Positions 25,939-63,124 of a stretch of DNA of 64,000 nucleotides are shown piece after piece. The first letter of the stretch is position 1. Every line of letters starts with the position of its first letter. The notes below the pieces were generated by a model. The model had not been told where the DNA came from and made no database searches. It was given only the letters and a program-made list of their open reading frames with translations. This stretch comes from Elusimicrobiota bacterium (lineage in GTDB: Bacteria > Elusimicrobiota > UBA5214 > JBBAAG01): the NCBI GenBank assembly GCA_041658405.1, contig JBBAAG010000006.1, positions 6,004 to 70,003 on the forward strand, written 5' to 3'. Position numbers and translations under genes: made by a program.

Positions 25939-25956
25939 ATAGGTAATACAATTTAA

Positions 25957-35314: not shown

Positions 35315-35382
35315 ACAGTCCTTGATTTATTCGTGAGTATGTTTTATAATACTCTGCGTTCCGGTTTTTTGGGAGCACGGAT

Positions 35383-35455
35383 TCCCCGGTAGCTCAATTG
35401 GTAGAGCACCTGACTGTTAATCAGGTGGTTGATGGTTCGAGTCCACCCCGGGGAG
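35383..35455 (+). tRNA. tRNA-Asn (anticodon GTT)
   Basis: Manual fold: acceptor TCCCCGG/CCGGGGA, D-arm GCTC-AATTGGTA-GAGC, anticodon arm CCTGA-CTGTTAA-TCAGG, T-arm GATGG-TTCGAGT-CCACC, discriminator G, no encoded CCA. It closely resembles E. coli tRNA-Asn. Confidence 0.85.
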
Positions 35456-35657
35456 TTTTTTAGTTATAGTCCTACTCATTTCAAAACGTTTCACTAGTGC
35501 CATCTTTTACCATCCTGTACATTTTACCGCTTTAAGTACACTATACCTTTGACTACAAAGATGTTTCAATTTGTTTCACTGTTATCATTTAGTAATGGGG
35601 AACGTGCATGTTTTTATTGAAAGGGGGATTTATATGTGTACAGGTATTCGGATTTTG

Positions 35658-36941
35658 TTAAGTTAAGTTAATACTTTTTCTAGGATTCCTGAAAAAATCC
35701 GCTATAGTTATATACTGAAAATCTCCTTTATCCTTTATTAAGTTATTTGTTTGTAGAATGACTGTTTTCTGTGTCTTTTTATATCTTCTTCCAAACAAAT
35801 CTAGTGAAGTTAAAAGTACAGGAGAATTTCCAGATTTTACTTCTATGGCAATTAATTTGTCTCCGGCTTGAATTACGAAATCTACTTCATCGTCTCTGTC
35901 ACGCCAATAAAAAAGTTCACCACCTATTTCTTGAGCAATAGCTAGTAGTTTCACTCCTATAGCATTTTCAGTCAATCTACCCATCAACGCTTTGTCCTTC
36001 AGCGTAACCTTATAACCAGTGCCTCTCGTGGCAGTAACTAATGAATTATCCCATACCAATATTTTTGGGGTGGATCCTCTCTGCTTGATTCTGCTGCCGC
36101 TGTATTTCTCCAGAGGGGATAATAGAAACGCATTAGATAATAACCTTAGATAAGACGCTATTGTTGTAGTATTCCCGGCATCCTGCAACTGGCCAAGCAT
36201 TTTTTGGTAGCTGATTATTTCAGCAGGATGTACCAGCCCAATGCCGAGTAGCTGGCGTAACAATGCGGGTTTGGTAATCGCCGACATGAGCAGTACATCT
36301 TTTGACAGGACAGTTTCTATCAACGAATCTCTGATATATTTTGACCATCTTGGCTCATCATCACGCAAAGGAATTGCTCCGGGGTATCCTCCAAAATAAA
36401 GGTATTCCTCTATTTTCATTTTAAAGTATTCTTCACATTCAGGAAATGACCAGTGGGTATGCCTGTGGATTTCAAAACGTCCGGCTAGGCTTTCAGTCAA
36501 CCCTTTTTGCACTAAAAGTGATGAAGAACCTAAAAGAATAACTCGTATCGATTTTTTTGTTCTCTTATCTTCATCAAACAATTTTTTTACAACTTCACTC
36601 CAGCGCGGTATTTTTTGTACTTCATCAAGTATAAGAAGTGTTTTACTTCTTTTCTTCTCGTATAATACCCTGGCTTCATCCCATTGCGCTGTAATCCAAT
36701 CAATAGTAGGGGTATTCGGCAAGTCTGCGGTTTTATAAAGTTTTGGCCCGGCCCACTTCTTGTATAACTGCAGAACGAGAGTTGTTTTTCCAACCTGTCG
36801 CGGCCCTATAACAACCTGAATTAGATTCGGTTCTCCATGCGACCTTTTATCCAGTTCATCAAACAGGAACTTTCTGATATATTCTTTCATAATGCAAAAA
36901 TAATAGCATGTCAGGAAACATCTGTCAAACGAATAACTCAA
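35658..36941 (-). CDS. AAA+ ATPase with C-terminal DUF4143-like domain
   Basis: Walker A GPRQVGKTTL and Walker B LLILDEVQ. The architecture is typical of the AAA_14 + DUF4143 family. The true start may be the internal Met at about 36890. Confidence 0.65.
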   Translation of the reverse strand: MSYSFDRCFLTCYYFCIMKEYIRKFLFDELDKRSHGEPNLIQVVIGPRQVGKTTLVLQLYKKWAGPKLYKTADLPNTPTIDWITAQWDEARVLYEKKRSKTLLILDEVQKIPRWSEVVKKLFDEDKRTKKSIRVILLGSSSLLVQKGLTESLAGRFEIHRHTHWSFPECEEYFKMKIEEYLYFGGYPGAIPLRDDEPRWSKYIRDSLIETVLSKDVLLMSAITKPALLRQLLGIGLVHPAEIISYQKMLGQLQDAGNTTTIASYLRLLSNAFLLSPLEKYSGSRIKQRGSTPKILVWDNSLVTATRGTGYKVTLKDKALMGRLTENAIGVKLLAIAQEIGGELFYWRDRDDEVDFVIQAGDKLIAIEVKSGNSPVLLTSLDLFGRRYKKTQKTVILQTNNLIKDKGDFQYITIADFFRNPRKSINLT

Positions 36942-40780: not shown

Positions 40781-40978
40781 ATGATAAAGCGACGTGTCCG
40801 CTCAGGCTCTGAATTCTGCAATAAGTGCGGTATAGCAAATAATAGCGAACACTCTTGGTTACGCTCCCGGTCCAGTTTTCGATACATCCCTATACTTTGC
40901 CCCAAATGTTCGAAGACATTATCCAAGGATGTAAAAGAATTTATTAAGAACTGGCTGCATTTCAATCTCCCGCGTTGA
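40781..40978 (+). CDS. small zinc-ribbon protein (two CxxC pairs), hypothetical
   Basis: 65-aa ORF with CNKCG and CPKCS. It overlaps an antisense 73-aa ORF (40744-40965). Neither has a strong RBS. Confidence 0.3.
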   Translation: MIKRRVRSGSEFCNKCGIANNSEHSWLRSRSSFRYIPILCPKCSKTLSKDVKEFIKNWLHFNLPR

Positions 40979-42194
40979 CAATATAAACATCAGACCGTCC
41001 CCCATGGGCGGCAGTATAAGATATCCAGTTGCCGGAAGCGTCTGTTAACGGATGCGGGTGGGAATACTGCCCCGGGAGGCTTCCCCACTCGGTATTGTGC
41101 AAACAAATAGGTTCCAATTTCGGCTCGCTTTCTGTGCCATCTCCATAATATAACCATTGAAGCTTGTCACGGGAAAAGAATCCGTCGATGATCAGCGCCG
41201 GCTTGTTTGGTAACGGCGTATTGTGTCCATAAAAACTGGATTCAGGAAATACCCTCTCCCAGACTGTGTTACCGGTTGGCGTGGCCACTCCGAAATACTC
41301 CCCGCCGCTTTCCGCTTTTCCATGATAGCACATGGCAGACCCGTCCCAGAGCCACGCTTGGTGGCTTTGAAAATATCCTGGATAATATGTCTTCAACGGG
41401 CGGATCTTTCCTGTCTGTATGTCAAGCAACCAGATGCGCGATGTATGTCCGTCGCCCTTACCCCAGTATCCCGGCGGGAGATCCAGATCGAAATACAGCA
41501 GCCCGCCGTTGGACGGACAGAACGCGCAATGAGCGGACTGGGCCGGCGAAGGGTGTTCGTAAAGAATATCCATTATACCGCTTCCATCCATTGGTACACG
41601 GATCAAACGAAGGCGGTGTAAATATTCGCGATAGCGTTTTTGAGGAATTAGTGGCCATTGGCTGCCCCGCATCTCCGGGTGAGCTGAGCTTAGTGTGATT
41701 CCCACGTACTTCTCATCGGGAGAAACGCTTGGCGCTCCGAATATCCATTCATCGCCGCAGTCGTCCAAGATAATCCGCGCATCGCAGGTGTGAATATCCA
41801 CTGCCATGATGCGCCTCTCAATAGTGAACACTACTACACCAGATTTCGGGGCAATGCTGACACGGTTACCGCAAATTCCGCGGCCATCAACGTCGGCAAA
41901 GGTGAGGCACATCCCGCGGTGAATATAATTACGGTCGCCGACGCCCGGTGCGCGCCAAAGCGCTTTCAAGTCGCCTGTCTCGGCCTCTGCGGCAATAACC
42001 CATGTAGATCCTTCACGAACGGAGACGAACACCATGTATCGTCCGTCAGCGGAAAAACCTGAATTCGTATGATACGTAGGAGTCTGATTGATCCGTCCGG
42101 TGGTGGTCAAACGACGCACGGAGCGCCCGGTCAACGCATCACTATAAGTTTCTGACTCATTCCAAGTATCGCCGATCTTCATGCCTTCCTCCAA
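40962..42194 (-). CDS. oligogalacturonide-lyase-like beta-propeller protein (PL22-like)
   Basis: 410 aa, cytoplasmic. The N-terminal motif TYSDALTGRSVRRLTTTG matches the Ogl (D.TG..V.RLT) signature. WD/TolB-like propeller blades follow. Confidence 0.5.
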   Translation of the reverse strand: MEEGMKIGDTWNESETYSDALTGRSVRRLTTTGRINQTPTYHTNSGFSADGRYMVFVSVREGSTWVIAAEAETGDLKALWRAPGVGDRNYIHRGMCLTFADVDGRGICGNRVSIAPKSGVVVFTIERRIMAVDIHTCDARIILDDCGDEWIFGAPSVSPDEKYVGITLSSAHPEMRGSQWPLIPQKRYREYLHRLRLIRVPMDGSGIMDILYEHPSPAQSAHCAFCPSNGGLLYFDLDLPPGYWGKGDGHTSRIWLLDIQTGKIRPLKTYYPGYFQSHQAWLWDGSAMCYHGKAESGGEYFGVATPTGNTVWERVFPESSFYGHNTPLPNKPALIIDGFFSRDKLQWLYYGDGTESEPKLEPICLHNTEWGSLPGQYSHPHPLTDASGNWISYTAAHGGRSDVYIVNAGD

Positions 42195-42229: not shown

Positions 42230-42514
42230 TTATAATTTCTCAACCATTTGGTGGAAACGTTTTTCAATTTCATTACAGAAAACAGTATCTGACAACCTGA
42301 TATTCATCATTTCTTCATCGCTCAAAGGTTTTGTTTTTGGCGATAATAACTTAATTGATAACGCTTCTGCGAACACAAGTTTATTCCCAGCCAGCGCTTT
42401 GACTTCTTTGAAAACATTTTCGTATCCGAATGTAGTATCCTTATTCTCTTCATCACTTCCGCAAGTGGTTACAAAAATAAGTTCCACGATACTTTTCATA
42501 AGCGCGAGGTCCAC
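42230..42514 (-). pseudogene. 3' fragment of a flavodoxin-family gene (duplicate of the 3' end of the gene at 49171-49617)
   Basis: GTG-initiated 94-aa ORF. Residues 6-55 (MKSIVELIFVTTCGSDEENKDTTFGYENVFKEVKALAGNKLVFAEALSIKLLS) match the C-terminus of the flavodoxin-like ORF about 7 kb downstream. The N-terminal FMN-binding half is missing. Confidence 0.45.
42349..42499. repeat. direct repeat copy 1 (about 150 bp, about 85% identical to 49188-49345)
   Basis: Aligned by eye: ...gctttgacttctttgaaaacattttcgtatccgaatgtagtatccttattctcttcatcacttccgcaagtggttacaaaaata... against the copy at about 49.2 kb. Confidence 0.65.
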
Positions 42515-42701
42515 GAAAATTACTCCAATTTATTTTACTCGGTTTTTGTTTTTCGCGCCACAGGGGGTACCCCTTGTGATGTTACTAGTTCCTTAATATT
42601 TAATAGGTATCTAACTTAAGGTCACTAACGCTGAGAAATTGGGATCCTTATACCCAATCAAACAGGTTATGACATCGTTTAGTTGTCAATTGAGTTGAAA
42701 A

Positions 42702-43370
42702 TTGAATATTGATATACTTAAATCAAAGAACTGGGAAAGACATTTGAGAATAGATATTTATCAGGTTATAAAGGACAATTATACCGTGCGGACTACCGGC
42801 GTATTTAATGACAAACTGCTTACCGTATCAATAATATTATCGATTACGGTACATTTTCTTATGTTTTACTTACCGAGGGTAATGATTGTTGAAGACGAGA
42901 TTAATCCGTTGGACTATAAACTTGTACAGTTAGTGGACATGGAACCTCTGCTTCCAATGATGCTGAAATCTGAAAATGCAGACGGCGAACTTAAACCCGT
43001 AGAGCAAACTCCCAAAGAAGTAAAGGAACTACCCAGAGAAGTAGCAAAACCAGTTACTGAATTGCAAAATTATTCTAACTACCTGCCCTTTTTTCAAGTA
43101 GCAAGGCTGCCTGAATTTATACAAAAAGTTAAGCCGGAATATCCATTAACCGCAAGGGTAAGAGACATTGAATCTAGTGTAATTGCGGAAGGATATATTG
43201 ATGCTGAAGGTAAGATGAGGAAAGTTGTTATTGTGAAAAGCGGTAGTACAGAATTTGATGCCGCAGTTATTGCTGCTTTGTACAAATCAAAATTTAAGCC
43301 AGCAATTTCGAAAGAAGGGAAGCCGGTAGCTGTTAAAGTACGGATTCCTTTTAAGTTTGAACTTGAATAA
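42702..43370 (+). CDS. tonB: TonB-family energy transducer (N-terminal TM anchor, C-terminal TonB domain)
   Basis: TTG start (ORF track). TM helix LLTVSIILSITVHFLMFYL. The C-terminus YPLTARVRDIESSVIAEGYIDAEGKMRKVVIVKSGSTEFDAAVIAALYKSKFKPA is a TonB_C fold. Confidence 0.6.
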   Translation: MNIDILKSKNWERHLRIDIYQVIKDNYTVRTTGVFNDKLLTVSIILSITVHFLMFYLPRVMIVEDEINPLDYKLVQLVDMEPLLPMMLKSENADGELKPVEQTPKEVKELPREVAKPVTELQNYSNYLPFFQVARLPEFIQKVKPEYPLTARVRDIESSVIAEGYIDAEGKMRKVVIVKSGSTEFDAAVIAALYKSKFKPAISKEGKPVAVKVRIPFKFELE

Positions 43371-43391
43371 CAGATTAGGAGGAAATGTTTT

Positions 43392-44021
43392 ATGGCAGGA
43401 ATGTCGTTTCTTGAATGGTTTAAAATGGGCGGAATATTCATGTGGCCGCTACTGATATTTTCAATAATTGGCCTGGCATACATAATAGAACGAAGCGCCG
43501 TCTTTCTTATGGTTAAAATACAACCGGGAATGGAAATTGAAGATATGTTTGCAAAACTCGACGAAAAAGATGTTGAATCTGCGAAAAAAGTGTTGGCTAA
43601 GCACAAAAACGCATATATTACAGAAGTCATGGCGGCAGGGCTTGATATGCTGGACCAGACAATTGAAAGAATGGAAAAATCGATGGAAGCGTGTATCAAT
43701 ATTAAAATAAAAATTCTTGAAAAACGGCTAAACATGCTCGTAGTAATCAGCAACCTCGCGCCACTAACCGGATTTTTGGGAACCGTATCCGGTATGATAA
43801 ACGCGTTCAAATCTATTGCCGTAGCAGAAGAAGTTTCTACCCAGCTTGTTGCCGCGGGTATTTATGAAGCGCTGATTACAACAGTTGCCGGGCTTGTTAT
43901 AGCTATAGTGGTGGTAAGCGCGCATAGCGTTTTTATGAACACTGTGGATAACTTTATCAACGATTCTGAACGGTTAACAAATAGGTTGGTTGAAGTGCTT
44001 ATAGAAAAAAAGATTAAGTAA
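43392..44021 (+). CDS. exbB: MotA/TolQ/ExbB proton-channel protein
   Basis: AGGAGG RBS at 43377-43382. Three TM helices. LAPLTGFLGTVSGMINAF is the ExbB/TolQ signature. Confidence 0.8.
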   Translation: MAGMSFLEWFKMGGIFMWPLLIFSIIGLAYIIERSAVFLMVKIQPGMEIEDMFAKLDEKDVESAKKVLAKHKNAYITEVMAAGLDMLDQTIERMEKSMEACINIKIKILEKRLNMLVVISNLAPLTGFLGTVSGMINAFKSIAVAEEVSTQLVAAGIYEALITTVAGLVIAIVVVSAHSVFMNTVDNFINDSERLTNRLVEVLIEKKIK

Positions 44022-44033
44022 GAAGAGTTTTTT

Positions 44034-44402
44034 ATGATCAAAGTAAGGCGCAGAAATAACGAGATACCGATGTCGTCAATGTCAGACATAGCATTTTTAC
44101 TTATAATATTTTTTATTGTCACAATGTCTTTTGTATACAAAAGCGGGTTGAATATACTGCTTCCAAAAAAGGGCGCGCAACCGCGGGTGGTAAGTGTTAA
44201 TGAAGTGTTCCAGCTTGAACTTAACGCTGTCGGGCGGTTGTCTCAAAACAAGATAAATATTAGCCTTGATAGCATGAAGTTTGGTACCAGAACCGGTGCT
44301 ATTATCAAGGTGGATAAAGCGTGTAAGTATGCAAATGTTATTGCGTTGATTGAACATTTGCAGAAAAACGGGGTTTACAGGATCTCGCTTAAAACATTAT
44401 GA
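44034..44402 (+). CDS. exbD: ExbD/TolR biopolymer transport protein (copy 1)
   Basis: N-terminus RRRNNEIPMSSMSDIAFLLIIFFIVT with a single TM. 122 aa. Confidence 0.75.
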   Translation: MIKVRRRNNEIPMSSMSDIAFLLIIFFIVTMSFVYKSGLNILLPKKGAQPRVVSVNEVFQLELNAVGRLSQNKINISLDSMKFGTRTGAIIKVDKACKYANVIALIEHLQKNGVYRISLKTL

Positions 44403-44818
44403 TAAAGATTAGGCGTAGAAAAGTTAATATTCCGGTCTCGTCAATGTCAGACATTGCGTTTTTATTATTAATATTCTTGATGGTAACTACACTGACATCG
44501 TCACAAAAAGCTGTTACTGTAACTCTGCCGCAGGTTGTAAAAGCGAGTAAAATAGACGCAAAGAAACGGATAAATGTGTATATAAAAAAAGACGGGAAGT
44601 TGTTTTACAACAGTAAGCAGGTAGATACGGATAAACTTATGGATATACTGGAAAACCTGGCAGTGTTCAACAAACACGCAACTGTTTTTTTGTACAGCGA
44701 CGTTGATACTGAGTATCGGCACGTTGATTCCGTAATACAGATACTAAAAAATGTTCAGATACGAAACTGCGTGTTTGCAACGAAGAATGTAACTTCGCAG
44801 GTTAATAATGCTAAGTAA
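44399..44818 (+). CDS. exbD: ExbD/TolR biopolymer transport protein (copy 2, tandem paralogue)
   Basis: ATGA overlap with copy 1. N-terminus RRRKVNIPVSSMSDIAFLLLIFLMVT. 139 aa. Confidence 0.75.
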   Translation: MIKIRRRKVNIPVSSMSDIAFLLLIFLMVTTLTSSQKAVTVTLPQVVKASKIDAKKRINVYIKKDGKLFYNSKQVDTDKLMDILENLAVFNKHATVFLYSDVDTEYRHVDSVIQILKNVQIRNCVFATKNVTSQVNNAK

Positions 44819-44839
44819 ACTATCAAGGTGTAATTGACA

Positions 44840-47164
44840 ATGGCAACAAAACTTAACTATCTACTAATACTATCATTCATTCTCATACATGTTTCTACAG
44901 GTTATTCATATGAAATAACGGGGAAACTGTACGATTCTGTTACAAACATCGTGTTGACTGACGGGTATATTGAAATATACGGTACAGAAAAATATGCACA
45001 AACTTCTGCTGACGGTACGTATGTATTGACAATTCAGCCTACAGGGCATTACCTGTTGTCATTCCATGCAATGGGATATGAATCAAAACAAACGGAAGTT
45101 GATGTTATCGCTGATATTAATCTCGATGTTGCACTACATGAGGGGAACGTCCCGTCTCTTAACGAAATAGTGGTTTCTGCAGAAAAAGAAAAAGCTGTTG
45201 TTTCAAAACAGGAAGTTAGGAAAGAAGAAATTCAGCGTGCAATGAAAAACTATTTTGATGATCCATTAAAGATATTGCAGACAATGCCTGGTGTAGTACG
45301 TGCAAATTATTTTAGTTCAATGATGTACGTACGCGGGGGAGAACCTTGGGAAAACGCAGGTGTTTGGGATGGTATTTACCTGCCGGTACTATACCATTAC
45401 GGCGGCTTGTTAAGCGTGTATAACCTCTCACTTATTGAAAACATAGCGTTTTATACCGGTGCATATCCCGCTATTTACGGTAATGCATTATCGTCAGTAA
45501 TAAATGTAAATAACCGGAGAGGGGATTATAAAAAAATTAAAGGTTCATTCACTCTTGGGTTGATAAGTTCTAGTTTGAACCTTGAGGTACCGGTGCCATT
45601 GCTGGAAGAATCGTCGTTTATCATCGGGATGAGAAGGACTTACTATGACCTTCTTCTCAACCTGCTTATAAATAAACAGGGAATAATGTTTCCTTATTAC
45701 TACGATATTCAAGGTAACTTTACTTTCAAAACCGGGAAAAGCAAGTTTACGTTATCCGGCTTGTATTCTTTTGAGGAGATTAACATGGCTGTAAATCCCA
45801 GTACCGGTATTGCAGCCGGAGTTTCAGTCTCAGCATTGTCATTGAGCGAAACGCCTGTGGTGTCATTACAGTGGCTGTACAAACCAGCGGAAAGTTTTTA
45901 TCTTAACCTTATTGCCGGATGGACTAAACAATACTCAAAAAGTGATTTAAGCGCTGACCTATCCAGTTTTTCAATCACTGATGAATTAAACATATCCGCA
46001 ACTAAAGTACAATACTTTTATTTGTATAACTACAGTACGTCATATCTTTACAACGTGAAGCCGGTATTTCATTTCATACCTTCGGAAATACAGCATTTAC
46101 AGGCGGGGATTGATGTCCAGCAGTATCCCGATATCAAAGAAGTGTTTGATATGGAATATAGCTATACCAATCTGAATAACAGAAACCGGGTAGTAAAAAC
46201 TGTGATGGAATCTACTTCTACCGCAACTCTTTACTGCCCGTTTATTCAGGATGAGATAAGCTTGTTCAATGAAAAACTTACGCTCCTTCCGGGTTGCCGG
46301 ATGACTTACCTGGACTTTAATGGACAGACTGTCACTGAGCCACGGTTTTCTGCTGAGTACAGTATTTCACAAAACGATACTGTAAAACTTGCAGTTGGGA
46401 AAGTTACACAGTTTATCGCTGAACCGCGGGTGTTAAAAGATAAGGATAAATCTGGTTTAAAGCTTCCGGAAGCATGGCATTATGTTGCTGGTTATGAAAA
46501 AGATATTGCAGAAGGAGTTTTATTACGGACAGAACTGTTCTATAAAGATTATAGTAACCTGATATTATTTGAAAGTAATAATTTTAATTCTACTGCTTCT
46601 AATAATATGTACGGCTATTCCCGGGGCCTGGAATTATTTGTTGAAAAGAAAAAAAGTGGTAATACAAACTTGTCCGGATGGATAAGCGCAGCGTTGCTTG
46701 ACTCGCGGCGTGTTATTTCATCTAAACTTTCATCAGGTAGTATTATTCCTGTGAATGAAGAGTTTTATCCGGATCAAGACAGGCGGTTTAATATGTCTAT
46801 TGTAGTGGACTGGAAAATATCAACGAAACTGATGTTATATTCTGAGTTTGATTATACTACCGGCAGCCCGTATACTCCAATAACCGGTGCTACAAAAAGA
46901 GTATATAGTTCCGGGAACGTGTCGTATCAGCCTGTATACGGTAAGTATAATTCAGAACGGCTTCCTGACTACCATACGCTTGACGTCAAGCTGGATTATA
47001 AGTTTAAATCGTTTGGCATAGAGTCATCATGTTTTTTACAGGTTAATAACTTATATAATCATACAAATGTTATGGGTTACGATTACTCCCGCGATTATTC
47101 AGTAAAAACAGAACGAAGTTACCTGGGATTATTGATAGTTACCGGCCTGGAATTTGTATGGTAA
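44840..47164 (+). CDS. TonB-dependent outer-membrane receptor with N-terminal carboxypeptidase-regulatory-like domain
   Basis: ATG at 44840 after AAGGTG. Signal peptide. YEITGKLYDSVTNIVLTDGYIEIYG...DGTYVLT is a CarboxypepD_reg-type motif. A plug and a long beta-barrel follow. The terminal residue is aromatic (..GLEFVW). Confidence 0.7.
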   Translation: MATKLNYLLILSFILIHVSTGYSYEITGKLYDSVTNIVLTDGYIEIYGTEKYAQTSADGTYVLTIQPTGHYLLSFHAMGYESKQTEVDVIADINLDVALHEGNVPSLNEIVVSAEKEKAVVSKQEVRKEEIQRAMKNYFDDPLKILQTMPGVVRANYFSSMMYVRGGEPWENAGVWDGIYLPVLYHYGGLLSVYNLSLIENIAFYTGAYPAIYGNALSSVINVNNRRGDYKKIKGSFTLGLISSSLNLEVPVPLLEESSFIIGMRRTYYDLLLNLLINKQGIMFPYYYDIQGNFTFKTGKSKFTLSGLYSFEEINMAVNPSTGIAAGVSVSALSLSETPVVSLQWLYKPAESFYLNLIAGWTKQYSKSDLSADLSSFSITDELNISATKVQYFYLYNYSTSYLYNVKPVFHFIPSEIQHLQAGIDVQQYPDIKEVFDMEYSYTNLNNRNRVVKTVMESTSTATLYCPFIQDEISLFNEKLTLLPGCRMTYLDFNGQTVTEPRFSAEYSISQNDTVKLAVGKVTQFIAEPRVLKDKDKSGLKLPEAWHYVAGYEKDIAEGVLLRTELFYKDYSNLILFESNNFNSTASNNMYGYSRGLELFVEKKKSGNTNLSGWISAALLDSRRVISSKLSSGSIIPVNEEFYPDQDRRFNMSIVVDWKISTKLMLYSEFDYTTGSPYTPITGATKRVYSSGNVSYQPVYGKYNSERLPDYHTLDVKLDYKFKSFGIESSCFLQVNNLYNHTNVMGYDYSRDYSVKTERSYLGLLIVTGLEFVW

Positions 47165-47191
47165 CGGAACAAATTCATAAGTCTTTTGTTT

Positions 47192-49009
47192 TCATTTGAC
47201 AGGAAATTCAGTAATCCTTAAATTTGTCCATCCGTAAGGGATTAATTCAAGATCTTCAACTTGTTTAGAGTTATTAATTTTTTGGCCTTTAACTTTTACT
47301 GTAACCGGTACTTTTGCAGATTTAAAAACAAAATCATTTATTTTATAATCAATAAATTTTAAATTACTAACATTTTTTTTCATAAGTGCATAATTCCATG
47401 GAGTTGTTGGCCGGATTTCCCAATCAGCATGAGGGAGTTCCCTGTATGGTGTATTTTCATTTATACGTTTCCATTTTTCACCGATTTTTAATGAATAAAT
47501 AATTGGCCCGCGTTTTATTGCTACGGTATTATTCGGTCTTTTCAGAACCTCTGGTTGCATCGGATATTTTAGCGTAATTATAGTCAACCCGCTCCACTTT
47601 TTGTTAATCCTAAAAAAATGGCCGGGTTTCACAGTATCTCCCAGTGTTTTATTATTAACTTTAATAAGTGCTTTCCTGGCCCACGATGGGATTCGTAAAG
47701 ATAAAGGAAATCTTACTGTTTTATCAGTTTTAAGTTTTATTGTTATAGTATCGCTGAAAGGATAGCTTGTTTCTATACTTGCTTCTATCTTACTGCCGTT
47801 GATATTAGTGATTACTTTACTCGGAGCGTAAGCACAAACTGCTAAACCGTTATCTTTTGATTTCATCCATAAATGCGCAGTGAATTTAGGCCATCCCTGG
47901 CTCAGATTTGCGGTACAACACCCGAAGTGAGGTTCTAGCCCAAAGATATTTGCATCAGGCCCGTTTGTTGTCCACACAGGGTTGGGATTTATTACACACT
48001 CAATTTGATTAACCTGCTGATCGTATTGGTGTGCCCACATATCAGGTGAAAATGTTGCGGGTAATGCATTAAACGCAATTAGTTCCAGCCTATCTCCAAA
48101 AACTGTATCTCCTAAAATTGATAATAATATTTCTAATGAATACATATATTCTACAACTGCGCATAGCTCTGTTCCCTGAACAGGATTTAACCCTGCTAAA
48201 CACTCATCACCTGAAAAAACACCTGTAACCATTCCATGATATTTATCAAGTTTATCGATCATCTCATACACTGTTTGTTTGTCAATATTATCGCCGGTCA
48301 TCTGATAAATTAATGCGTGCGACTTTACTGCCATTGCGTTATTCACAACGTGGCCCATGTAATTCCATCCACCCTTGGGTGTTGCTTTTGTTATTGGCCA
48401 GTTTTTAAAGTAATTACCCCAGTTAAAACCCTGAGCATATAATTTTATGGCTAATCTCAGCAGCCAGTCTTCCTTCGTTTTCTGATATAACCAATAAATT
48501 GGTATCAGTGCCTCGAACCATCTGGAATGCGCCCAGTTATTTACTGTGTTTTTGTTTATATGAACATTAATATTCTTACATGCTTTTTTTACTACATCTA
48601 CAATTTTTTCATTTTTGGTTACGTCATAATACTGTGTCAGGACTTTTAACACTAAAAACTGTCCCCATAAATCATAATTTTTGTAATACGGCCCAAGCCA
48701 TCCGTCGTCCTTCTGGTTGGAAATAATATAAGACATGTATTTATTTACTTTATTTATTAGTTTTTTATCCCGTAATAAATAGGCAAGAGGTAGAACACCG
48801 TCCAGCCAGTACGGAGCCCTCTCCCATCCTTCGGCATCACCGCCGAACCATTTACTGTTTTTTATATCAGGCCAAAATTCGTCAACTTTCCCGCTTAAGC
48901 TTTTTGCCTGGAGTTTAAGTTGATTTTTTAACCATCCCGAAGGCTGGATTTCTGTGATTGAAAGCGGAGTAAAAACAGGTTCTTTTATTAGCTTCATAAA
49001 ACTTATCAC
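47192..49009 (-). CDS. GH127-family (DUF1680) beta-L-arabinofuranosidase-like six-hairpin glycosidase
   Basis: 605 aa, cytoplasmic. The GH127 Zn-site arrangement Glu-x-Cys (GTELCAVVE) ... Cys-Cys (HFGCCTANLSQGW) is present. Confidence 0.55.
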   Translation of the reverse strand: MISFMKLIKEPVFTPLSITEIQPSGWLKNQLKLQAKSLSGKVDEFWPDIKNSKWFGGDAEGWERAPYWLDGVLPLAYLLRDKKLINKVNKYMSYIISNQKDDGWLGPYYKNYDLWGQFLVLKVLTQYYDVTKNEKIVDVVKKACKNINVHINKNTVNNWAHSRWFEALIPIYWLYQKTKEDWLLRLAIKLYAQGFNWGNYFKNWPITKATPKGGWNYMGHVVNNAMAVKSHALIYQMTGDNIDKQTVYEMIDKLDKYHGMVTGVFSGDECLAGLNPVQGTELCAVVEYMYSLEILLSILGDTVFGDRLELIAFNALPATFSPDMWAHQYDQQVNQIECVINPNPVWTTNGPDANIFGLEPHFGCCTANLSQGWPKFTAHLWMKSKDNGLAVCAYAPSKVITNINGSKIEASIETSYPFSDTITIKLKTDKTVRFPLSLRIPSWARKALIKVNNKTLGDTVKPGHFFRINKKWSGLTIITLKYPMQPEVLKRPNNTVAIKRGPIIYSLKIGEKWKRINENTPYRELPHADWEIRPTTPWNYALMKKNVSNLKFIDYKINDFVFKSAKVPVTVKVKGQKINNSKQVEDLELIPYGWTNLRITEFPVK

Positions 49010-49170
49010 CTTTTCTGATGTACTATGATATCTAGAGTACTCCCCATTGTCAATACCAGTCTATGAGATGAACAAGATATAGCCGTAGTCGTAATTTCTC
49101 TTTCCTTTTTGCTACTTTTTCCTTTCTCTTTGTTAATTCTGTGCATACTGTGGATAACCCATTTCTGTCT

Positions 49171-49617
49171 TTACTGTTTCGTTCCTGACGACAATAATTT
49201 TATTGACAACGCTTCTGTAAGCATAAGTTTGTCCTCTACTAGCGTTTTGACTTCTTTGAAAACATTTTCGGATCCAAATTTTGTATCCTTATTCTCCTCA
49301 TCACTTCTGCAAGTGGTCACAAAAATATGTTTCCCGATACTTTTCATGTGTTTCCGTATAAACCCGCGTATCGGCGAGACAAGTTGGCCCATCCAGATAG
49401 GGGTTAGGATAATTACCCGGTCATAAGGCGCAGGATCGTGACTGGTACGTTTTGTCATTGTTCCTATACGCATAAGGGAGAGTAAGATTAATAACGGGAA
49501 TAATTTTGGAACTGGTACTATAGCTTCAACATCGCACTGTAGTTCCCGGGCAAGCCGTTTCGCGGCGTATTCATTATTTCCCGTGAATGAATAATAATAA
49601 ACTACCGTTTTTTTATA
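49171..49617 (-). pseudogene. flavodoxin-family protein gene with no in-frame start codon upstream of the flavodoxin N-terminus
   Basis: The ORF track calls an ATG at 49473, but the reading frame is open upstream to a TAA at 49618-49620. The extension (Y)KKTVVYYYSFTGNNEYAAKRLARELQCDVEAIV... is the canonical flavodoxin N-terminus and FMN phosphate loop. No ATG/GTG/TTG precedes it (TAA TAT AAA AAA ACG GTA), and it sits next to an A7 homopolymer. Confidence 0.45.
49188..49345. repeat. direct repeat copy 2 (matches 42349-42499)
   Basis: ...cgttttgacttctttgaaaacattttcggatccaaattttgtatccttattctcctcatcacttctgcaagtggtcacaaaaata... Confidence 0.65.
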
Positions 49618-49671
49618 TTACCACTACTACATTTACACCCGTTCTATTTTGTTGTTACCCGGGAAGTTTCA

Positions 49672-50508
49672 TTACCAATGATAACTCAAACATGGAGACA
49701 GTAATAGTGTTGTAGTAGAACCTGAGTGTACAGTTTCTTTTCCGATGAACAGTTTGGCATCCAGCCTTAAATGCATATTGTGCTTAGCCCAAAACTCAAT
49801 CCCAGTACTCATAATCGGCATAGGACCCTCAACGAATTCGTCATAACTGTATGTATAAGTAAGCCAGTAAGCATGAACTTCGTTATAATACAACCCTGCC
49901 CCAAAATATACCGAGAAATTAGTATCATAAAAAAAATGGTATTTCACAAGCATGGGAAACGAATAATGGCGGTCATTACCGAATCCTGTGTGCCTATATA
50001 TATCATCTGGAAAATAGTTGTATGAATCACTTCGTGTATACGCACTTGAATTTAGTTCAACACCCCAGCCTTTAGGCCCTACAAACTCATAAAATATTCC
50101 AAAACCGTATACGGTAGATGAAGATAAATGAAAAACATCTCCGCCTGCTGTTATTCCTGCTCCCCCGACTTTAAGTTTTATTCCTGTATAGACAACTATA
50201 TTTCCTGGTTCTACACGCCCGGTGTAATTATGAATTACCCTGCCAATAGATTTGTGGGCTTGTACTCTAGTGATTCGCAGTTGCCCAATTTTTGTGTTTT
50301 TATTCCAAATATCGAATACCTGTCTTTTTTCAATGTCGTCCAGCATCCCGCTGCCAACTGTTACAGTTCTCCCATCAACTTCTGTGATTTGTATCTGTTT
50401 AGTTAGACTGGTATCCAATTTTGTGGTACTAATTTCTGCTTGTGCTTTTGTGTTTATACCCACAATAAATATACTACAAAACAGTAATAAAACACATATT
50501 TTTTTCAT
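49672..50508 (-). CDS. outer-membrane beta-barrel protein with N-terminal soluble domain, hypothetical
   Basis: Signal peptide MKKICVLLLFCSIFIVGINTKAQA. The C-terminal half has alternating aromatic/hydrophobic strands ending ...LSYHW. It is co-directional with the DUF3494 gene 26 nt upstream. Confidence 0.55.
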   Translation of the reverse strand: MKKICVLLLFCSIFIVGINTKAQAEISTTKLDTSLTKQIQITEVDGRTVTVGSGMLDDIEKRQVFDIWNKNTKIGQLRITRVQAHKSIGRVIHNYTGRVEPGNIVVYTGIKLKVGGAGITAGGDVFHLSSSTVYGFGIFYEFVGPKGWGVELNSSAYTRSDSYNYFPDDIYRHTGFGNDRHYSFPMLVKYHFFYDTNFSVYFGAGLYYNEVHAYWLTYTYSYDEFVEGPMPIMSTGIEFWAKHNMHLRLDAKLFIGKETVHSGSTTTLLLSPCLSYHW

Positions 50509-50534: not shown

Positions 50535-51413
50535 TTACGGGGCAGGTTGTACAACCGTGTTGGAATCAAGAGTTACCGCAGTCTGCGACAATAATCTGCC
50601 GTTTATCGTTGCACCAGTATTCAGCGTAATTGCTGTTTGTGACAGTATCACCCCTTCAAAATGCGCGGTCGTATCAAGGGATACAGCACCAAAGGCCTGC
50701 CAGAAAATGTTTTTGGGTAGTGCACCGCCAGATAGTATCACATTCTTCGCAGCGGCAATGGTTAGATCTCCCGATATCTGGAAGATCCATACATCGTTTG
50801 GCCCACCCGAGAGCGTAACATCCGTCGGGATTAAAAGACTGGTACCCCATTTATATGTACCCGCGGGTAGTGTCATCCCGCCAATATTTCCCGCACCAAT
50901 TTCGGTAAAATCAGCAGCTCGTCCTGCGGCATTGGTGTACGCAGTTTCCATATTGCTTACAGCTGTTGTCAGGTTAGCAGGGGTTGGAACCGCATAGTCG
51001 GCAGCGTATATCCTTCCAGTAACTTGAGTGGCAATTGAAAATTGATTTGAGACATCCATTGCTTCTGAAAATCCTGTGATACCGATCGCTGCGATGGGAC
51101 TCACTCCGATATTACCAGTGATTGCGGAGGTTGGAATGGTTGAAATACCTGATTTTGATAGAATCACATAATTTCCAGCTGTTCCAAGAACCACTGGTAC
51201 TGGGCCTGCTCCTAAGCCGTCTCTACCCGTTCCGTCGCCTGGAGTTGTTGGGGCGACGATCTTTTCCTTGTTTTTATCTACCACTTTCTTATCCAACTCT
51301 ACCACTTTTTGTTTTATTGCGCCTGTCATACCAAATCTTAAACCTGCAGCAGTTAAAACAGAACATGTAAAAATACAAATCGTAAAAACTAAAAACACTT
51401 TTTCAAATTTCAT
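50535..51413 (-). CDS. DUF3494 ice-binding-protein family (IBP-1 fold) secreted protein
   Basis: The start ATG at 51413 carries a GGAGGAG RBS. Signal peptide. Family-characteristic segments are LGTAGNYVILSKSGISTIPTSAITGNIGVSPIAAIGITGF, LPAGTYKWGTSLLIPTDVTLSGGPNDVWIFQI, KNIFWQAFGAVSLDTTAHFEGVILSQTAITLNTGATINGRLLSQTAVTL. Confidence 0.75.
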   Translation of the reverse strand: MKFEKVFLVFTICIFTCSVLTAAGLRFGMTGAIKQKVVELDKKVVDKNKEKIVAPTTPGDGTGRDGLGAGPVPVVLGTAGNYVILSKSGISTIPTSAITGNIGVSPIAAIGITGFSEAMDVSNQFSIATQVTGRIYAADYAVPTPANLTTAVSNMETAYTNAAGRAADFTEIGAGNIGGMTLPAGTYKWGTSLLIPTDVTLSGGPNDVWIFQISGDLTIAAAKNVILSGGALPKNIFWQAFGAVSLDTTAHFEGVILSQTAITLNTGATINGRLLSQTAVTLDSNTVVQPAP

Positions 51414-51418
51414 TTTAT

Positions 51419-51425
51419 CTCCTCC
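51419..51425 (-). promoter_or_regulatory. Shine-Dalgarno (GGAGGAG) of the DUF3494 gene
   Basis: ctcctcc on the + strand, 5-7 nt upstream of the ATG (51411-51413 complement). Confidence 0.5.
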
Positions 51426-51456
51426 GATAATTATCATATTTCATCTATTACAGCTA

Positions 51457-59450: not shown

Positions 59451-61121
59451 ATGAATGAAATTTCTGTATTAATTGCAGGTAAAGCCGGATATGGAATCGA
59501 TAAGTCCGGTTCAATAATCGCAAGCCTATTCAACCATTTGGGATACAGGATATATATATACAGGGATTACCCGTCACTTATAAGAGGCGGGCATACTTTT
59601 TCTATTATCCGGGCATCAGGCCAAAAGATCAGTACTCATAGGAACAACGTCGATTTTTTACTTGCATTAAATCAGGATACTATAGACTTTCATAAACAAA
59701 GGTTGAAAGACAATTCTATTATAATTTACGATTCTGATTCAGTCAAACTTCCATCTTTTCCCGTTGAGATACAATCATTTGGTATACCTGTTGCTAAAAT
59801 CCTAAAAACGGAAAACGCAGCTGATATTATGCGTAATACCTGCATCATAGGCGCTTTCTGCAAGGCAGCAGGTATCGGGAAAGATATTATGGAAAAAGTT
59901 ATCAAGAAAAGTATGGCTAAGGAAACAGAGTTAAACACAAAAATTGCAGTCAAAGGGTTTGACGAAACCGGGGTATCCAAACAAATAGATGTTATCGCAC
60001 AAGTTAGCCTGCCAATAATCACGGGTAATGAAGCTATAAGTTTAGGCTTGATTAAAGGCGGATTACAAGCATATATTTCGTATCCCATGACACCGTGTTC
60101 CGGTATTCTCCATTTTTTGGCTGAGATGGCTGAAGAATTTTCGTTGAAAGTCGTTCATCCGGAAAATGAGATTTCTGTGATGCTCATGGCTCTAGGATTT
60201 TCGTATATGGGAGAGAAAGTGGCGGTGGGTACTTCAGGCGGCGGGTTTTGTTTAATGACAGAAGGTTTTAGTTTCAGCGGGATGGCAGAACTACCGGTGG
60301 TTGTTATCGTTGGCCAGCGTCCCGGCCCAAGCACAGGCTTGCCTACGTACACAGGCCAGACCGAACTACATTTTGTGCTTAACGCCGGTCAAGGCGAATT
60401 CTGCCGATTCGTAGTTGCGCCGGGCGATGCGGAGGAAGCATATTATTGGTCCGGAATATCAATGAATATTGCACAGAAATACCAGACTCCTGCGATTATA
60501 TTGTCAGATAAAACATTATCCGAAGGCGCGAGTAGTTTTGATATTGCACAAACAGGGCCGGTAGATGATGAAAAAGGTTTTTTGTGGGACAGAAAAGGCG
60601 AGTATAAACGTTACCTAAATTCAGAGACGGGAATCTCTCAGTTGGCGTTCCCTCCTGACAAAGATGTTGTTATAAAGGTTAATAGTTACGAACATGACGA
60701 ATCGGGAATCACGGCTGAAGAGGCCGGGGTCACAAACAAAATGTTGGAAAAACGGATGCGTAAAGAAGCGTATCTATCATCGGAATTGGAAGATTACAAA
60801 ACAGTGAATGTCGCAGGAAACAGGGATTCACCCACAGGTGTGGTATGCTGGGGGTCAAATAAAGGCGTAGTTTTTGAAGCTGCTGCTAACCTGGGTTTAC
60901 GCGCAATCCATCCGGTGGTACTCTGGCCATTTCCCAGAAAACAGTTTCAGGATGCATTGAACGGAATCACAAAACTTGTCTGTGTGGAAAACAATGCAAC
61001 AGGACAGTTAGCGAAGCTTATCTCCCAATTGGGATACAAAGTGGACCACACAATGTTGCGTTATGACGGCCGGCCGTTTTCCCTGGATGAACTGGAAGAA
61101 AAGTTGAGGATGGAGATATGA
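59451..61121 (+). CDS. 2-oxoacid:ferredoxin oxidoreductase alpha subunit (gamma-alpha fused)
   Basis: The N-terminal gamma-like domain (GKAGYGIDKSGSIIASLFNHLGYRIYIYRDYPSLIRGGHTFSIIRA) is followed by the alpha domain (ISYPMTPCSGILHFLAE). 556 aa. Confidence 0.8.
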   Translation: MNEISVLIAGKAGYGIDKSGSIIASLFNHLGYRIYIYRDYPSLIRGGHTFSIIRASGQKISTHRNNVDFLLALNQDTIDFHKQRLKDNSIIIYDSDSVKLPSFPVEIQSFGIPVAKILKTENAADIMRNTCIIGAFCKAAGIGKDIMEKVIKKSMAKETELNTKIAVKGFDETGVSKQIDVIAQVSLPIITGNEAISLGLIKGGLQAYISYPMTPCSGILHFLAEMAEEFSLKVVHPENEISVMLMALGFSYMGEKVAVGTSGGGFCLMTEGFSFSGMAELPVVVIVGQRPGPSTGLPTYTGQTELHFVLNAGQGEFCRFVVAPGDAEEAYYWSGISMNIAQKYQTPAIILSDKTLSEGASSFDIAQTGPVDDEKGFLWDRKGEYKRYLNSETGISQLAFPPDKDVVIKVNSYEHDESGITAEEAGVTNKMLEKRMRKEAYLSSELEDYKTVNVAGNRDSPTGVVCWGSNKGVVFEAAANLGLRAIHPVVLWPFPRKQFQDALNGITKLVCVENNATGQLAKLISQLGYKVDHTMLRYDGRPFSLDELEEKLRMEI

Positions 61122-61972
61122 TGCAGGAAAAAAATTGGGGAACAAACGCTATTAATACCTGGTGTCCTGGCTGCGGTAATTTTGCAATTTTGAATTCAAT
61201 AAAATCAGTACTAAAGTCGCTGGTTGCGGATAATATATTGGCGGAAAACATAGTCCTTGTTTCCGGAATAGGCTGCGGTGCCAAGATCGTTGATTATATC
61301 AATGCCAACAGTGTTTACTCAATTCACGGCCGGGTTCTTCCTGTGGCAGAAGGAATCAAACTTGCTAACCCGCAGATGAAAGTAATTGGTTTAGCCGGTG
61401 ATGGCGACACTTATGGAGAAGGAATGGAACACCTTGTTTTCGCTGCAAAAAGAAATATTGATATTACCATGATTGTCCACAATAACAGGGTGTATGGGTT
61501 GACTACAGGACAGTACACGCCAACATCGCCGTTGGGTTATAAAGGGCGGTCTACACCTCAAGGGAGTAAGGAGACACCGATAAACCCTCTGGAAATCATG
61601 CTTGCAAGCGGCGCAAGTTTTATTAGCCGCGGTACATCTACTACTATGGAATTGCTAAAAAAACTTATGAGGGAAGCAATAATGCATAAAGGGTTTGCAC
61701 TCGTGGATATCCTGCAGGTATGCGTAACATTTTTTAATATGTATGAATACTACAACAAAAACGTGTATGAACTAGCCGGACATGATCCCGCTGATTACGG
61801 AAAGGCAATGCAGAGAATCAGGGAATGGAATTATAGTAATACCGATGCTAAAATACCGCTAGGAGTTTTTTATAAAAAAGAAATACCGACGTTTGAAGAA
61901 TATTATTTACACCTAGGTAAGGAGACAGAACGCAGTCAAAAAATACATAAAATATTGGAGAATACAATATAA
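61118..61972 (+). CDS. 2-oxoacid:ferredoxin oxidoreductase beta subunit (TPP-binding)
   Basis: ATGA overlap with the alpha subunit gene. WCPGCGNFAILNSI and the GDGDTYGEG TPP motif are present. Confidence 0.85.
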   Translation: MMQEKNWGTNAINTWCPGCGNFAILNSIKSVLKSLVADNILAENIVLVSGIGCGAKIVDYINANSVYSIHGRVLPVAEGIKLANPQMKVIGLAGDGDTYGEGMEHLVFAAKRNIDITMIVHNNRVYGLTTGQYTPTSPLGYKGRSTPQGSKETPINPLEIMLASGASFISRGTSTTMELLKKLMREAIMHKGFALVDILQVCVTFFNMYEYYNKNVYELAGHDPADYGKAMQRIREWNYSNTDAKIPLGVFYKKEIPTFEEYYLHLGKETERSQKIHKILENTI

Positions 61973-62659: not shown

Positions 62660-63124
62660 TCAAATATTTCTAATTATCCTTGCAGATAAGACTAGTTCCT
62701 TAATTTCTGGCGGTAACTTTTTATTCTGCCATTTTCGTTCTGATTCTACAGGCTTCCCTGCACTTTTCACGGCTTTTAAAGCATACCATGCCGGGCCTAA
62801 CGAATGATCAGCCATATGTGCAGTAGCAACAGCATGGCCTACAGCGCGAGCTACTGCAATTGCTTCCGGGGTTGAAGCTTCACGTGCTACCGCTATTGCG
62901 TCTAATGCCGCTTTTCTCGCATCGCCAACTGAAGCTTTTCCTTGTTTCCATTTTTTTGCTACATCCAGCGTGTTTATTAACCGTTTATCAATTTTCTTGC
63001 CGAAAAGATGTAATACATGTTTTGCACAGGAACATGCCCAGGCCATTAACTGGTAGTGCCGGGCTTTTGTTAGTGGCCCGCCACGGTGTACTGCAATAAA
63101 TCGTTTATCTCTCATATTTTTCAT
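62660..63124 (-). CDS. hypothetical Ala-rich all-alpha cytoplasmic protein (immunity-protein-like?)
   Basis: 154 aa. Repeated A-x-x-A helices (ARKAALDAIAVAREASTPEAIAVARAVGHAVATAHMADH). No family assigned. Confidence 0.4.
   Translation of the reverse strand: MKNMRDKRFIAVHRGGPLTKARHYQLMAWACSCAKHVLHLFGKKIDKRLINTLDVAKKWKQGKASVGDARKAALDAIAVAREASTPEAIAVARAVGHAVATAHMADHSLGPAWYALKAVKSAGKPVESERKWQNKKLPPEIKELVLSARIIRNI

Follow-up and report, generated by a model that had tools for sequence, protein, structure and literature searches.

The locus described here lies in a 64,000-nt stretch of DNA from an uncultured Elusimicrobiota bacterium (the window) and consists of a 6.7 kb block of genes bracketed by two pieces of a flavodoxin-like gene (Table 1). 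The initial annotation had described the enclosed genes as those for TonB, ExbB, two ExbD proteins, a TonB-dependent receptor and a GH127-like protein, and all of these were recovered above Pfam cut-offs. The Ton set, comprising TonB_C, MotA_ExbB, ExbD and a receptor with a Plug domain, forms one array on the + strand (42702-47164). The receptor barrel domain had no match in the window protein but was matched in relatives, and the nearest non-self relative of the receptor is 27% identical. In the GH127-like protein the C-terminal domain scores below cut-off (16.5 bits), and the catalytic and middle domains assign the predicted product to GH127, with a putative activity. A predicted sigma-70-like promoter ahead of this gene (TTGACA-17-TATCAT, 49053-49025) is the best match in the region. 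Neither spacer between the block and its flanking remnants matched a known RNA element in Rfam. The palindrome next to the TonB gene was rejected as a terminator because it lacks a T run and has a fold z-score of -1.1.

Table 1. Features at the locus and their positions in the window.
Feature	Position	Strand	Remarks
Oligogalacturonate-lyase-like / PD40 gene	40962..42194	-	GC 52.9% vs 36-40%
Gene remnant 1	42230..42514	-	core and C-terminal third, profile 92-179 of 183
Repeat copy 1 (segment B')	42328..42499	-	172 nt, codons for MKSIVELIFVTTCGSDEENKDT...LLSPKTK
Spacer, remnant 1 / TonB	42515..42701	.	flanking genes divergent; palindrome CACAGGGGGTACCCCTTGTG at 42559-42578
TonB-like protein	42702..43370	+	TonB_C, 57.3 bits
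ExbB	43392..44021	+	MotA_ExbB, 96.4 bits
ExbD, first copy	44034..44402	+	Pfam (two ExbD copies: 69.2/86.9 bits)
ExbD, second copy	44399..44818	+	Pfam (two ExbD copies: 69.2/86.9 bits)
TonB-dependent receptor	44834..47164	+	CarboxypepD_reg-like domain and Plug (27.0 bits)
GH127-like (DUF1680) glycoside hydrolase	47192..49009	-	catalytic 65.6, middle 63.2 bits
Spacer, remnant 2 / GH127	49010..49170	-	sigma-70-like promoter match
Gene remnant 2	49171..49617	-	148-codon open frame; N-terminus, middle and core, profile 2-146
Repeat copy 2 (segment B)	49176..49347	-	172 nt
OMP gene	49672-50508

The two pieces share a direct repeat that aligns without gaps over 172 nt at 83% identity, with 29 differences (blastn E 3e-47). 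Its copies lie 6848 nt apart, start to start, their longest shared exact run is 25 nt, and no third copy occurs in the 64,000-nt window. The pairwise alignment thus bears out the direct repeats noticed at the outset, although at 172 nt rather than the ~150 bp first given. Both copies are read from the minus strand, in frame, as fragments of a flavodoxin-fold family of ~180 aa. The layout, in a single orientation, reads A-B-[6.7 kb block]-B'-C. The repeat had been thought to derive from the 3' end of the gene; it maps instead to the middle-to-late third (profile 92-146).

A profile built from outside relatives only was run against six frames of the whole window and matched the two remnants and nothing further: 42233-42529 at positions 91-179 (E 5e-31) and 49174-49617 at positions 2-143 (E 4e-56). 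Remnant 1 is indeed the truncated 94-aa ORF (42230-42514) that had been proposed, covering only profile positions 91/92-179 of 183/184 and lacking the first ~91 family positions, FMN-phosphate loop included. A GTG stands at 42514 with GGAG 8 nt upstream, while NCBI annotates the remnant as an 89-aa hypothetical protein, WC955_02325, from the ATG at 42499. Remnant 2, which had been taken for a full-length flavodoxin-like gene, covers profile positions 2-146 only; the C-terminal ~33 family positions are gone, and so is the start codon. At the family start position it reads TAA TAT AAA AAA ACG where relatives have M-K-K-T: TAT (49615-49617) takes the place of their ATG, directly before an A7 run, and no ATG, GTG or TTG is found there. 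Its TAA stop (49171-49173) falls 2 nt past the end of homology, and the annotation WC955_02360 (95 or 100 aa) takes in just the part from an internal ATG onward. No trace of the missing N-terminus was detected in spacer 42515-42701, nor of the C-terminus in spacer 49010-49170, and neither remnant is a translatable gene with a complete flavodoxin domain, copy 2 spanning profile positions 2-146 without a start and copy 1 positions 92-179.

Each relative of the remnants is one protein of 175-190 aa, and its alignment to a composite of both is contiguous. A hypothetical join across the repeats gives a frame of 178 codons with a score of 215-227 bits, where the family averages 223; as judged from these translations, the joined remnants are exactly one normal family member. 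The family-like frame of the join argues that a flavodoxin-like coding region is interrupted by the block. The ~180-aa family has no curated model and no characterized member. Against the Flavodoxin_5 model (PF12724, cut-off 27 bits) the ORF of remnant 2 scores 25.3 bits and the composite 24.4; the NCBIfam model of EFR1-family ferredoxins (NF038196), through its N-terminal domain, gives 33-34 bits, under a cut-off of 75. The family shares with both an N-terminal beta-strand followed by an S-x-T-G-N-N phosphate-loop motif, and weak profile matches, but differs in its size of ~180 aa, a hydrophobic stretch after the first helix, and the sub-cut-off scores. Profile matches to flavodoxin/WrbA-like chains in the PDB (2mwm, E 2.7e-7), together with an uncurated family of 118 relatives, point to flavodoxin membership at the fold or superfamily level only. 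The frame of copy 2 carries the FMN-phosphate loop VVYYYSFTGNN, in which the family alignment shows almost no variation at S9, G12 and N14; the motif is missing from copy 1.

The 29 substitutions that separate the repeat copies comprise 13 synonymous and 16 non-synonymous changes, with no indels and no stops (dN/dS 0.26, dS 0.50). A simulation of neutral change that included the observed transition bias gave P(>=13 synonymous) = 0.03-0.04, a weaker signal than the plain binomial test (P = 0.003) that it supersedes; the selection signal, drawn from 57 codons only, is moderately significant (P ~0.03). The copies are each other's nearest relatives, with 75% amino acid identity (43/57) compared to at most 49% to all other sequences. 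In held-out profile scoring all four segments fell within the range of intact members (38th-73rd percentile). Indels arise about one-tenth as often as substitutions (PMC6054270). At that rate ~3 would be expected in the repeat under neutral decay and ~6 in the 711 nt of remnant frames; none is seen in either. The synonymous excess, the lack of indels and stops, and the intact-like scores argue that the copies diverged as functional genes, that is, as two homologues and not one gene. By this pattern of divergence they would be two diverged homologous genes that were truncated recently. The copies are not alike at conserved sites: copy 1 has no departures and copy 2 has five radical residues. 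Four of these (L>H, G>R, Y>S and G>E) have no counterpart in any of 47 relatives, and at the fifth, P>S, serine is also found in 5 of the 47. Adenine mutagenesis in the style of diversity-generating retroelements was rejected as a source of the differences, the spectrum being symmetric (8 G>A, 8 A>G).

Several signs of mobility were sought. Pfam scans found no recombinase, transposase or integrase domains in the block genes or their neighbors. Transposon-like termini were rejected, as neither direct nor inverted repeats at the block ends exceeded those in shuffled sequence. The GC content of the block (37.5%, compared to 38.8-42.4% in the flanks) likewise led us to reject a foreign composition; only the adjoining lyase-like gene deviates. 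A tRNA-linked island was rejected too, since the only tRNA, tRNA-Asn at 35382-35456, lies 7 kb away and its 3' end is without a repeat. The block thus shows none of the integrase, the att, terminal or tRNA repeats, or the distinct composition of an integrative element or genomic island. The repeats also depart from a target-site duplication, which implies identical origin and neutral divergence, in their dN/dS of 0.26 (P ~0.03) and lack of indels and stops. Recombination between direct repeats can delete the intervening DNA but cannot invert it, so that the inversion proposed earlier is ruled out by the geometry. The proposed excision is unlikely at 17% divergence: transformation in B. subtilis declines logarithmically up to 15% divergence (PMC6382021), and at 17%, with no exact run beyond 25 nt, RecA-type recombination is strongly disfavored.

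Public data were searched for comparable loci, and no relative of the Elusimicrobiota lineage was found in them. The composite flavodoxin query hit only two self clusters among 5.8 billion protein clusters, including four assemblies of the same population. A metagenome scan for the flavodoxin-like family gave 80 loci at 38-49% identity; two copies were present in one of the 80, and there was no recurrent linkage to Ton or GH127 genes among them. The two closest flavodoxin-like relatives have their contexts on short contigs. The OMP gene beyond remnant 2 had no relative, and a genome scan with the lyase-like protein returned only non-syntenic Verrucomicrobiota, Lentisphaeria and Planctomycetaceae MAGs. 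An independent ENA assembly has the identical arrangement, with 2 mismatches in 22 kb. In Logan, a contig spans the copy-2 junction, and there is a break in the assembly (42544-42569) at the block's left edge. Two findings led to the rejection of an assembly chimera: the copies share no exact stretch longer than 25 nt, and independent assemblies reproduce the junctions.

We lean towards reading the repeats as the overlapping middles of two diverged homologues, most simply paralogues, of one ~180-aa gene, both now relics, and the block as a chromosomal uptake locus of the ordinary kind, with predicted promoters of its own. Both flavodoxin-fold copies would have been functional until fairly recently, and would initially have lain adjacent in the same orientation. 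A single illegitimate insertion-with-deletion may then have brought in the TonB-ExbB-ExbD-ExbD-receptor operon, together with the convergent GH127 gene, across the copy junction, costing the first copy its 3' end and the second its 5' two-thirds. The upstream copy would have kept its N-terminus, middle and core and lost the C-terminal ~33 residues and start codon, and the downstream copy would have kept core and C-terminus only. As a variant, two separate small deletions could have occurred in copies already flanking the block. The repeats would now be functionless and too diverged for efficient recombination. Tandem or multiple copies are rare in the family (the one locus in 80), which gives adjacent paralogues a low prior. 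Nor does one simultaneous truncation predict radical residues in the proportion of 5 in copy 2 to none in copy 1; this asymmetry suggests either an earlier inactivation of copy 2 or separate events. The remnants resemble truncated bacterial pseudogenes in their 3' and 5' losses, abrupt ends of homology, loss of a start codon and "hypothetical protein" labels; they differ in being complementary, with a 172-nt overlap at 83% identity, in deriving from two diverged copies, and in having no frameshifts.

The paralogue relics have as their main competitor a Campbell-type or homology-assisted integration, in which a resident A-B-C gene crossed over within B with a circle from a related organism carrying the block plus B'; the 17% would then be the divergence between donor and recipient. 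We consider this unlikely as a whole. The geometry is exactly that of insertion-duplication, down to the A-B-[insert]-B-C product in direct orientation, the complementary truncation of both copies, the abrupt ends of homology and the lack of remnants beyond B. Divergence under selection would suit orthologues of two lineages, and the lyase-like gene indicates that the neighborhood has taken up foreign DNA. However, the repeats here differ by 17%, no signature of a vector, plasmid or recombinase is present, and the insert has the composition of its flanks. The donor circle would also have to carry an isolated internal 172-nt fragment between the GH127 and TonB upstream regions; such a fragment would arise naturally only by excision from an identical arrangement, so that the model pushes the problem back. 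Moreover, recombination is very inefficient at 17% divergence and at most 25 nt of exact identity (PMC6382021), and the 5:0 ratio of radical changes is at odds with the equal decay expected after integration.

Less probable still is a single gene into which an insertion duplicated 172 bp of target, by staggered breaks or replicative repair, with the copies then drifting as pseudogenes. A-B-[insert]-B-C is most simply read in this way, the fragments total exactly one gene, and copy 2 has the lost start codon and radical residues of a decaying sequence. It is difficult to reconcile with the synonymous excess (P ~0.03 even with transition bias), the absence of stops from both copies, and the count of no indels in 711 nt of remnant frames when ~6 are expected (PMC6054270). 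All segments score as intact, copy 1 has no conserved-site departures, and the block lacks a transposase and terminal repeats. We know of no transposition mechanism that makes a 172-bp target duplication. The initial proposal that the block was inserted into, or duplicated together with part of, the flavodoxin gene is thus retained as far as the interrupted coding region is concerned, and is opposed by these data as regards a duplication made by the insertion.

We give very little credence to the block being a recombinase-free cassette that enters and leaves in Campbell fashion through a portable flavodoxin-like segment, its excision regenerating the gene; if that were true, the Logan break at the left junction would be a population polymorphism. 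Hardly credible at all is a regulated or reversible interruption, whether excision restores a working gene or both ORFs are functional short proteins: excision would give an in-frame 178-codon family member, GGAG lies 8 nt before the GTG of remnant 1, and the Logan break falls at the left edge of the block, but no recombinase lies in or near it, the repeats are long and 83% identical instead of short and exact, a start codon would be missing even from the restored frame, no intact allele is present in the 5.8 billion protein clusters with their four assemblies of the population, and neither fragment alone could form a complete flavodoxin fold. Interruptions by several kilobases in which deletion between flanking direct repeats restores the frame are known from skin in sigK of B. 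subtilis and from nifD, fdxN and hupL of Anabaena. Skin and the nifD-type elements each encode a site-specific recombinase and are bordered by short exact repeats, whereas the locus here has no recombinase, repeats of 172 nt at 83% identity, and a restored gene without a start codon.

The flavodoxin-like pieces are a real but ordinary rearrangement scar, neither mobile element nor switch, and the scar opens no long-standing question. For annotation, WC955_02325 and WC955_02360 are to be treated as pseudogene fragments of one flavodoxin-like family and not counted as genes. The locus also provides a worked example of applying synonymous and non-synonymous counts, the absence of indels and held-out scores to a short repeat; these measures can tell a duplication made by insertion from two older homologues that were later truncated. 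It further documents genome flux at a local scale, beside a clearly foreign gene, in an Elusimicrobiota lineage that is deeply isolated. The lyase-like gene, which begins 35 nt past the stop of remnant 1, marks the area by its foreign composition as a site of repeated rearrangement.

A direct repeat of 172 nt, ungapped and 83% identical (29 differences, E = 3e-47), was found by blastn and a repeat search on either side of a 6.7 kb block of Ton, receptor and GH127 genes, and no third copy was detected in the window. The initial annotation had recognized the pair correctly, although its coordinates, 42349-42499 and 49188-49345, were somewhat short. Similarity ends sharply at both repeat borders, and the two copies, both on the minus strand, share one reading frame and fall within ORFs annotated as hypothetical proteins in the Elusimicrobiota MAG.

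Features of the repeat-bracketed locus and its surroundings (window positions)
Feature	Position	Strand	Details
Repeat copy 1	42328-42499	-
Repeat copy 2	49176-49347	-
ORF1, with copy 1	42230-42514	-	94 aa; WC955_02325
ORF2, with copy 2	49171-49473	-	100 aa; WC955_02360
TonB_C	42702-43370		Pfam
MotA_ExbB	43392-44021		Pfam
ExbD, two genes	44034-44402 and 44399-44818		Pfam
Receptor (CarboxypepD_reg, Plug)	44834-47164		Pfam
GH127 catalytic and middle domains	47192-49009	opposite to Ton/receptor genes	Pfam
Sigma factor, ECF-type	2980-3597
Anti-sigma-like protein, zf-HC2	3610-4545
Kelch-repeat protein	4556-10165	+	1869 aa
Glycyl-radical enzyme and activase	23653-26775	+
tRNA-Asn(GTT)	35382-35456	+
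AAA_14/DUF4143 ATPase	35658-36941	-
Oligogalacturonate-lyase-like / PD40	40962-42194	-
OMP beta-barrel protein	49672-50508		278 aa
Ice_binding-like protein (PF11999)	50535-51437	-	E 2.6e-73
2-oxoacid:ferredoxin/flavodoxin oxidoreductase pair	59451-61972
Imm5-like putative immunity protein	62660-63124	-	E 6e-40

All six frames of the window were searched with a profile of the flavodoxin-like family, built from outside relatives only. Region 49174-49617 matched profile positions 2-143 (E = 4e-56) and 42233-42529 matched positions 91-179 (E = 5e-31); there were no further family matches. Thus the copy 2 gene consists of N-terminus, middle and core, with no start codon and a stop 2 nt beyond the end of homology, and is not the full-length gene previously supposed. 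The copy 1 gene consists of core and C-terminus, in agreement with its earlier description as a C-terminal part. No trace of the missing parts was found in spacers 42515-42701 and 49010-49170. On translation, the ORF2 frame remains open upstream to 49617, without an ATG, GTG or TTG upstream of 49473; this extension reads YKKTVVYYYSFTGNNEYAAKRLARELQ..., matches the N-terminus of the relatives (MKKxVVYYS.TGNN) residue by residue, and encodes the flavodoxin-type phosphate loop. At the family start position (49600-49620, minus strand) the codon TAT stands between a TAA and a run of seven A residues (TAA TAT AAA AAA ACG); loss of the G from an ancestral ATG would give exactly such a sequence. Joined across the repeat, the two fragments form a frame of 178 codons that spans profile positions 2-179 and scores 215-227 bits; 47 intact relatives average 223. 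The main value of these results is a corrected annotation for the two hypothetical proteins.

The copies differ at 13 synonymous and 16 non-synonymous sites over 57 shared codons (Nei-Gojobori dN/dS 0.26, dS 0.50), with no indels or stop codons. The synonymous excess is significant in a simple binomial test (P = 0.003); transitions make up 22 of the 29 changes, and in a simulation keeping this bias 8.5-8.7 synonymous changes are expected under neutrality, 13 or more having a probability of 0.03-0.04. Indel mutations are about one tenth as frequent as substitutions (PMC6054270), so neutral decay to 17% divergence should have left about 3 indels in the repeat and about 6 over the 711 nt of remnant frames; neither contains any. 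In held-out scoring all four segments fell within the range of intact family members: the N-terminal part of the copy 2 gene at the 73rd percentile, the repeat in copy 2 at the 38th, the repeat in copy 1 at the 73rd, and the C-terminal part of the copy 1 gene at the 48th. The synonymous excess, the lack of indels and stops and the intact-like scores indicate that most of the divergence predates loss of function in both genes, and thus that the repeats are the overlap of two diverged homologues, recently truncated, rather than a target duplication. Each copy has the other as its closest relative (75% amino acid identity, 43/57 residues, versus at most 49% elsewhere), which fits either paralogy within the lineage or copies that come from close relatives. 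Copy 2 deviates from the family at five conserved sites, at all of which copy 1 carries the consensus. Four of its residues (L>H, G>R, Y>S and G>E) are absent from all 47 relatives, G being present in 41/47 at the G>R site and Y in 40/47 at the Y>S site; at the fifth site, P>S, the serine is shared with 5/47. This asymmetry and the loss of the start codon suggest that copy 2 has been inactive longer than copy 1.

The locus has the character of an ordinary rearrangement scar that contains two truncated pseudogenes. We lean slightly toward the view that rearrangement cut short two homologous genes, of which these are the relics. What was observed directly is the identity of the fragments, how they complement each other, the type of divergence and the lack of mobility signatures; as the ancestral arrangement we infer two adjacent flavodoxin-like copies on the same strand. 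A single insertion-with-deletion of the block over their junction would be the most economical history, and two separate deletions a variant of it. Integration of a homeologous fragment by a Campbell-type or homology-assisted route fits the geometry but appears unlikely: the donor circle would have to carry an internal fragment standing alone, and recombination would have to proceed despite 17% divergence. In Bacillus subtilis recombination drops logarithmically up to 15% divergence (PMC6382021). Insertion-duplication has the same geometry as this locus, and the initial annotation had proposed that the block was inserted into the flavodoxin gene or duplicated with part of it. A single gene with a 172-bp insertion-linked duplication that then drifted is nevertheless improbable, being countered by the departure from neutrality (P = 0.03-0.04), the absence of indels and stops, and the intact-like segment scores, which point to two diverged homologues. 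A regulated excisable interruption, or a pair of functional mini-proteins, is very improbable given no recombinase, no start codon and a complete fold from neither fragment.

The locus lacks the defining features of target-site duplications, integrative elements and skin/nifD-type interrupting elements. Neither the block nor the rest of the window encodes recombinase, transposase or phage-type domains, the GC content of the block (37.5%) is similar to that of its flanks (38.8-42.4%), and comparison of its ends revealed neither direct nor inverted repeats beyond those in shuffled controls. The sole tRNA gene, followed by an ATPase gene, lies at a distance of 7 kb; no second copy of the tRNA 3' end occurs elsewhere in the window. 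Spacers had no matches to Rfam families, and the best promoter-like site of the region is directly upstream of the GH127 gene. Between repeats in direct orientation, recombination can produce only deletions, never inversions, which disposes of the inversion suggested earlier. Excision had also been suggested, but the longest exact run between the copies is 25 nt, so even deletion should be rare. The enclosed genes were all confirmed by Pfam matches. The adjacent ExbD genes share 91 nt at their 5' ends (44032-44122 and 44397-44487, 75% identical) and are an old tandem duplicate inside the Ton operon.

The arrangement recurs in the ENA assembly k141_60030 (89 kb), where 22 kb contain 2 mismatches, and a Logan contig crosses the copy 2/GH127 junction identically. 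Logan contigs of SRR8449812 break between copy 1 and TonB, one ending at 42569 and the other starting at 42544. This overlap falls within a near-perfect palindrome, CACAGGGGGTACCCCTTGTG (42559-42578), about 125 nt upstream of TonB and without a following T run on either strand. The palindrome may serve as an operator, or may mark a coverage artefact or polymorphic junction, and the break may reflect coverage, a hairpin or polymorphism. No intact flavodoxin-like allele was present in the protein collection.

With the two fragments joined as one query, a word-indexed search recovered no proteins other than the window's own pair; exhaustive searching by HMMER, using a profile made from ORF1 and ORF2, identified 118 relatives. 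Full-length relatives have 175-190 aa, and the composite (131 positions) aligns contiguously to residues ~50-178 of single proteins. The family is a distant member of the flavodoxin fold: Flavodoxin_5 scored 25.3 bits, short of its 27-bit cut-off, flavodoxin and EFR1 models from NCBIfam scored far under theirs, and the top PDB profile match was 2mwm (E = 2.7e-7). Among 80 metagenome loci encoding family members, Ton, receptor or GH127 genes showed no recurrent association, and just one locus, L038, carries two copies (127-687 and 1516-2076, with identical profile scores), reflecting a recent tandem duplication or else an assembly repeat. The window also encodes a glycyl-radical enzyme resembling pyruvate-formate lyase, the radical-SAM activase of that enzyme, and an oxidoreductase pair. 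These might draw on low-potential electron carriers, in a genome where the flavodoxin-like gene of this locus is broken.

The lyase-like gene, which starts 35 nt beyond the stop of remnant 1, is probably a recent horizontal acquisition. It has a GC content of 52.9% (GC3 55%), versus 36-40% in all neighbours, and its product shares 69% and 64% amino acid identity with proteins from MAGs of Verrucomicrobiota and Lentisphaeria, with no synteny in common. In public data the lineage stands very much alone, with no relatives in the searched collections; among 5.8 billion protein clusters the closest relative of the receptor has at most 27% identity, and the beta-barrel protein has none but itself. 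Other genes encode an Imm5-like protein, a secreted Ice_binding-like protein (GC locally elevated to 45%), and, downstream of sigma and anti-sigma-like genes, a protein with many Kelch repeats, one BNR/Asp-box and a FlgD_ig-like C-terminal domain.
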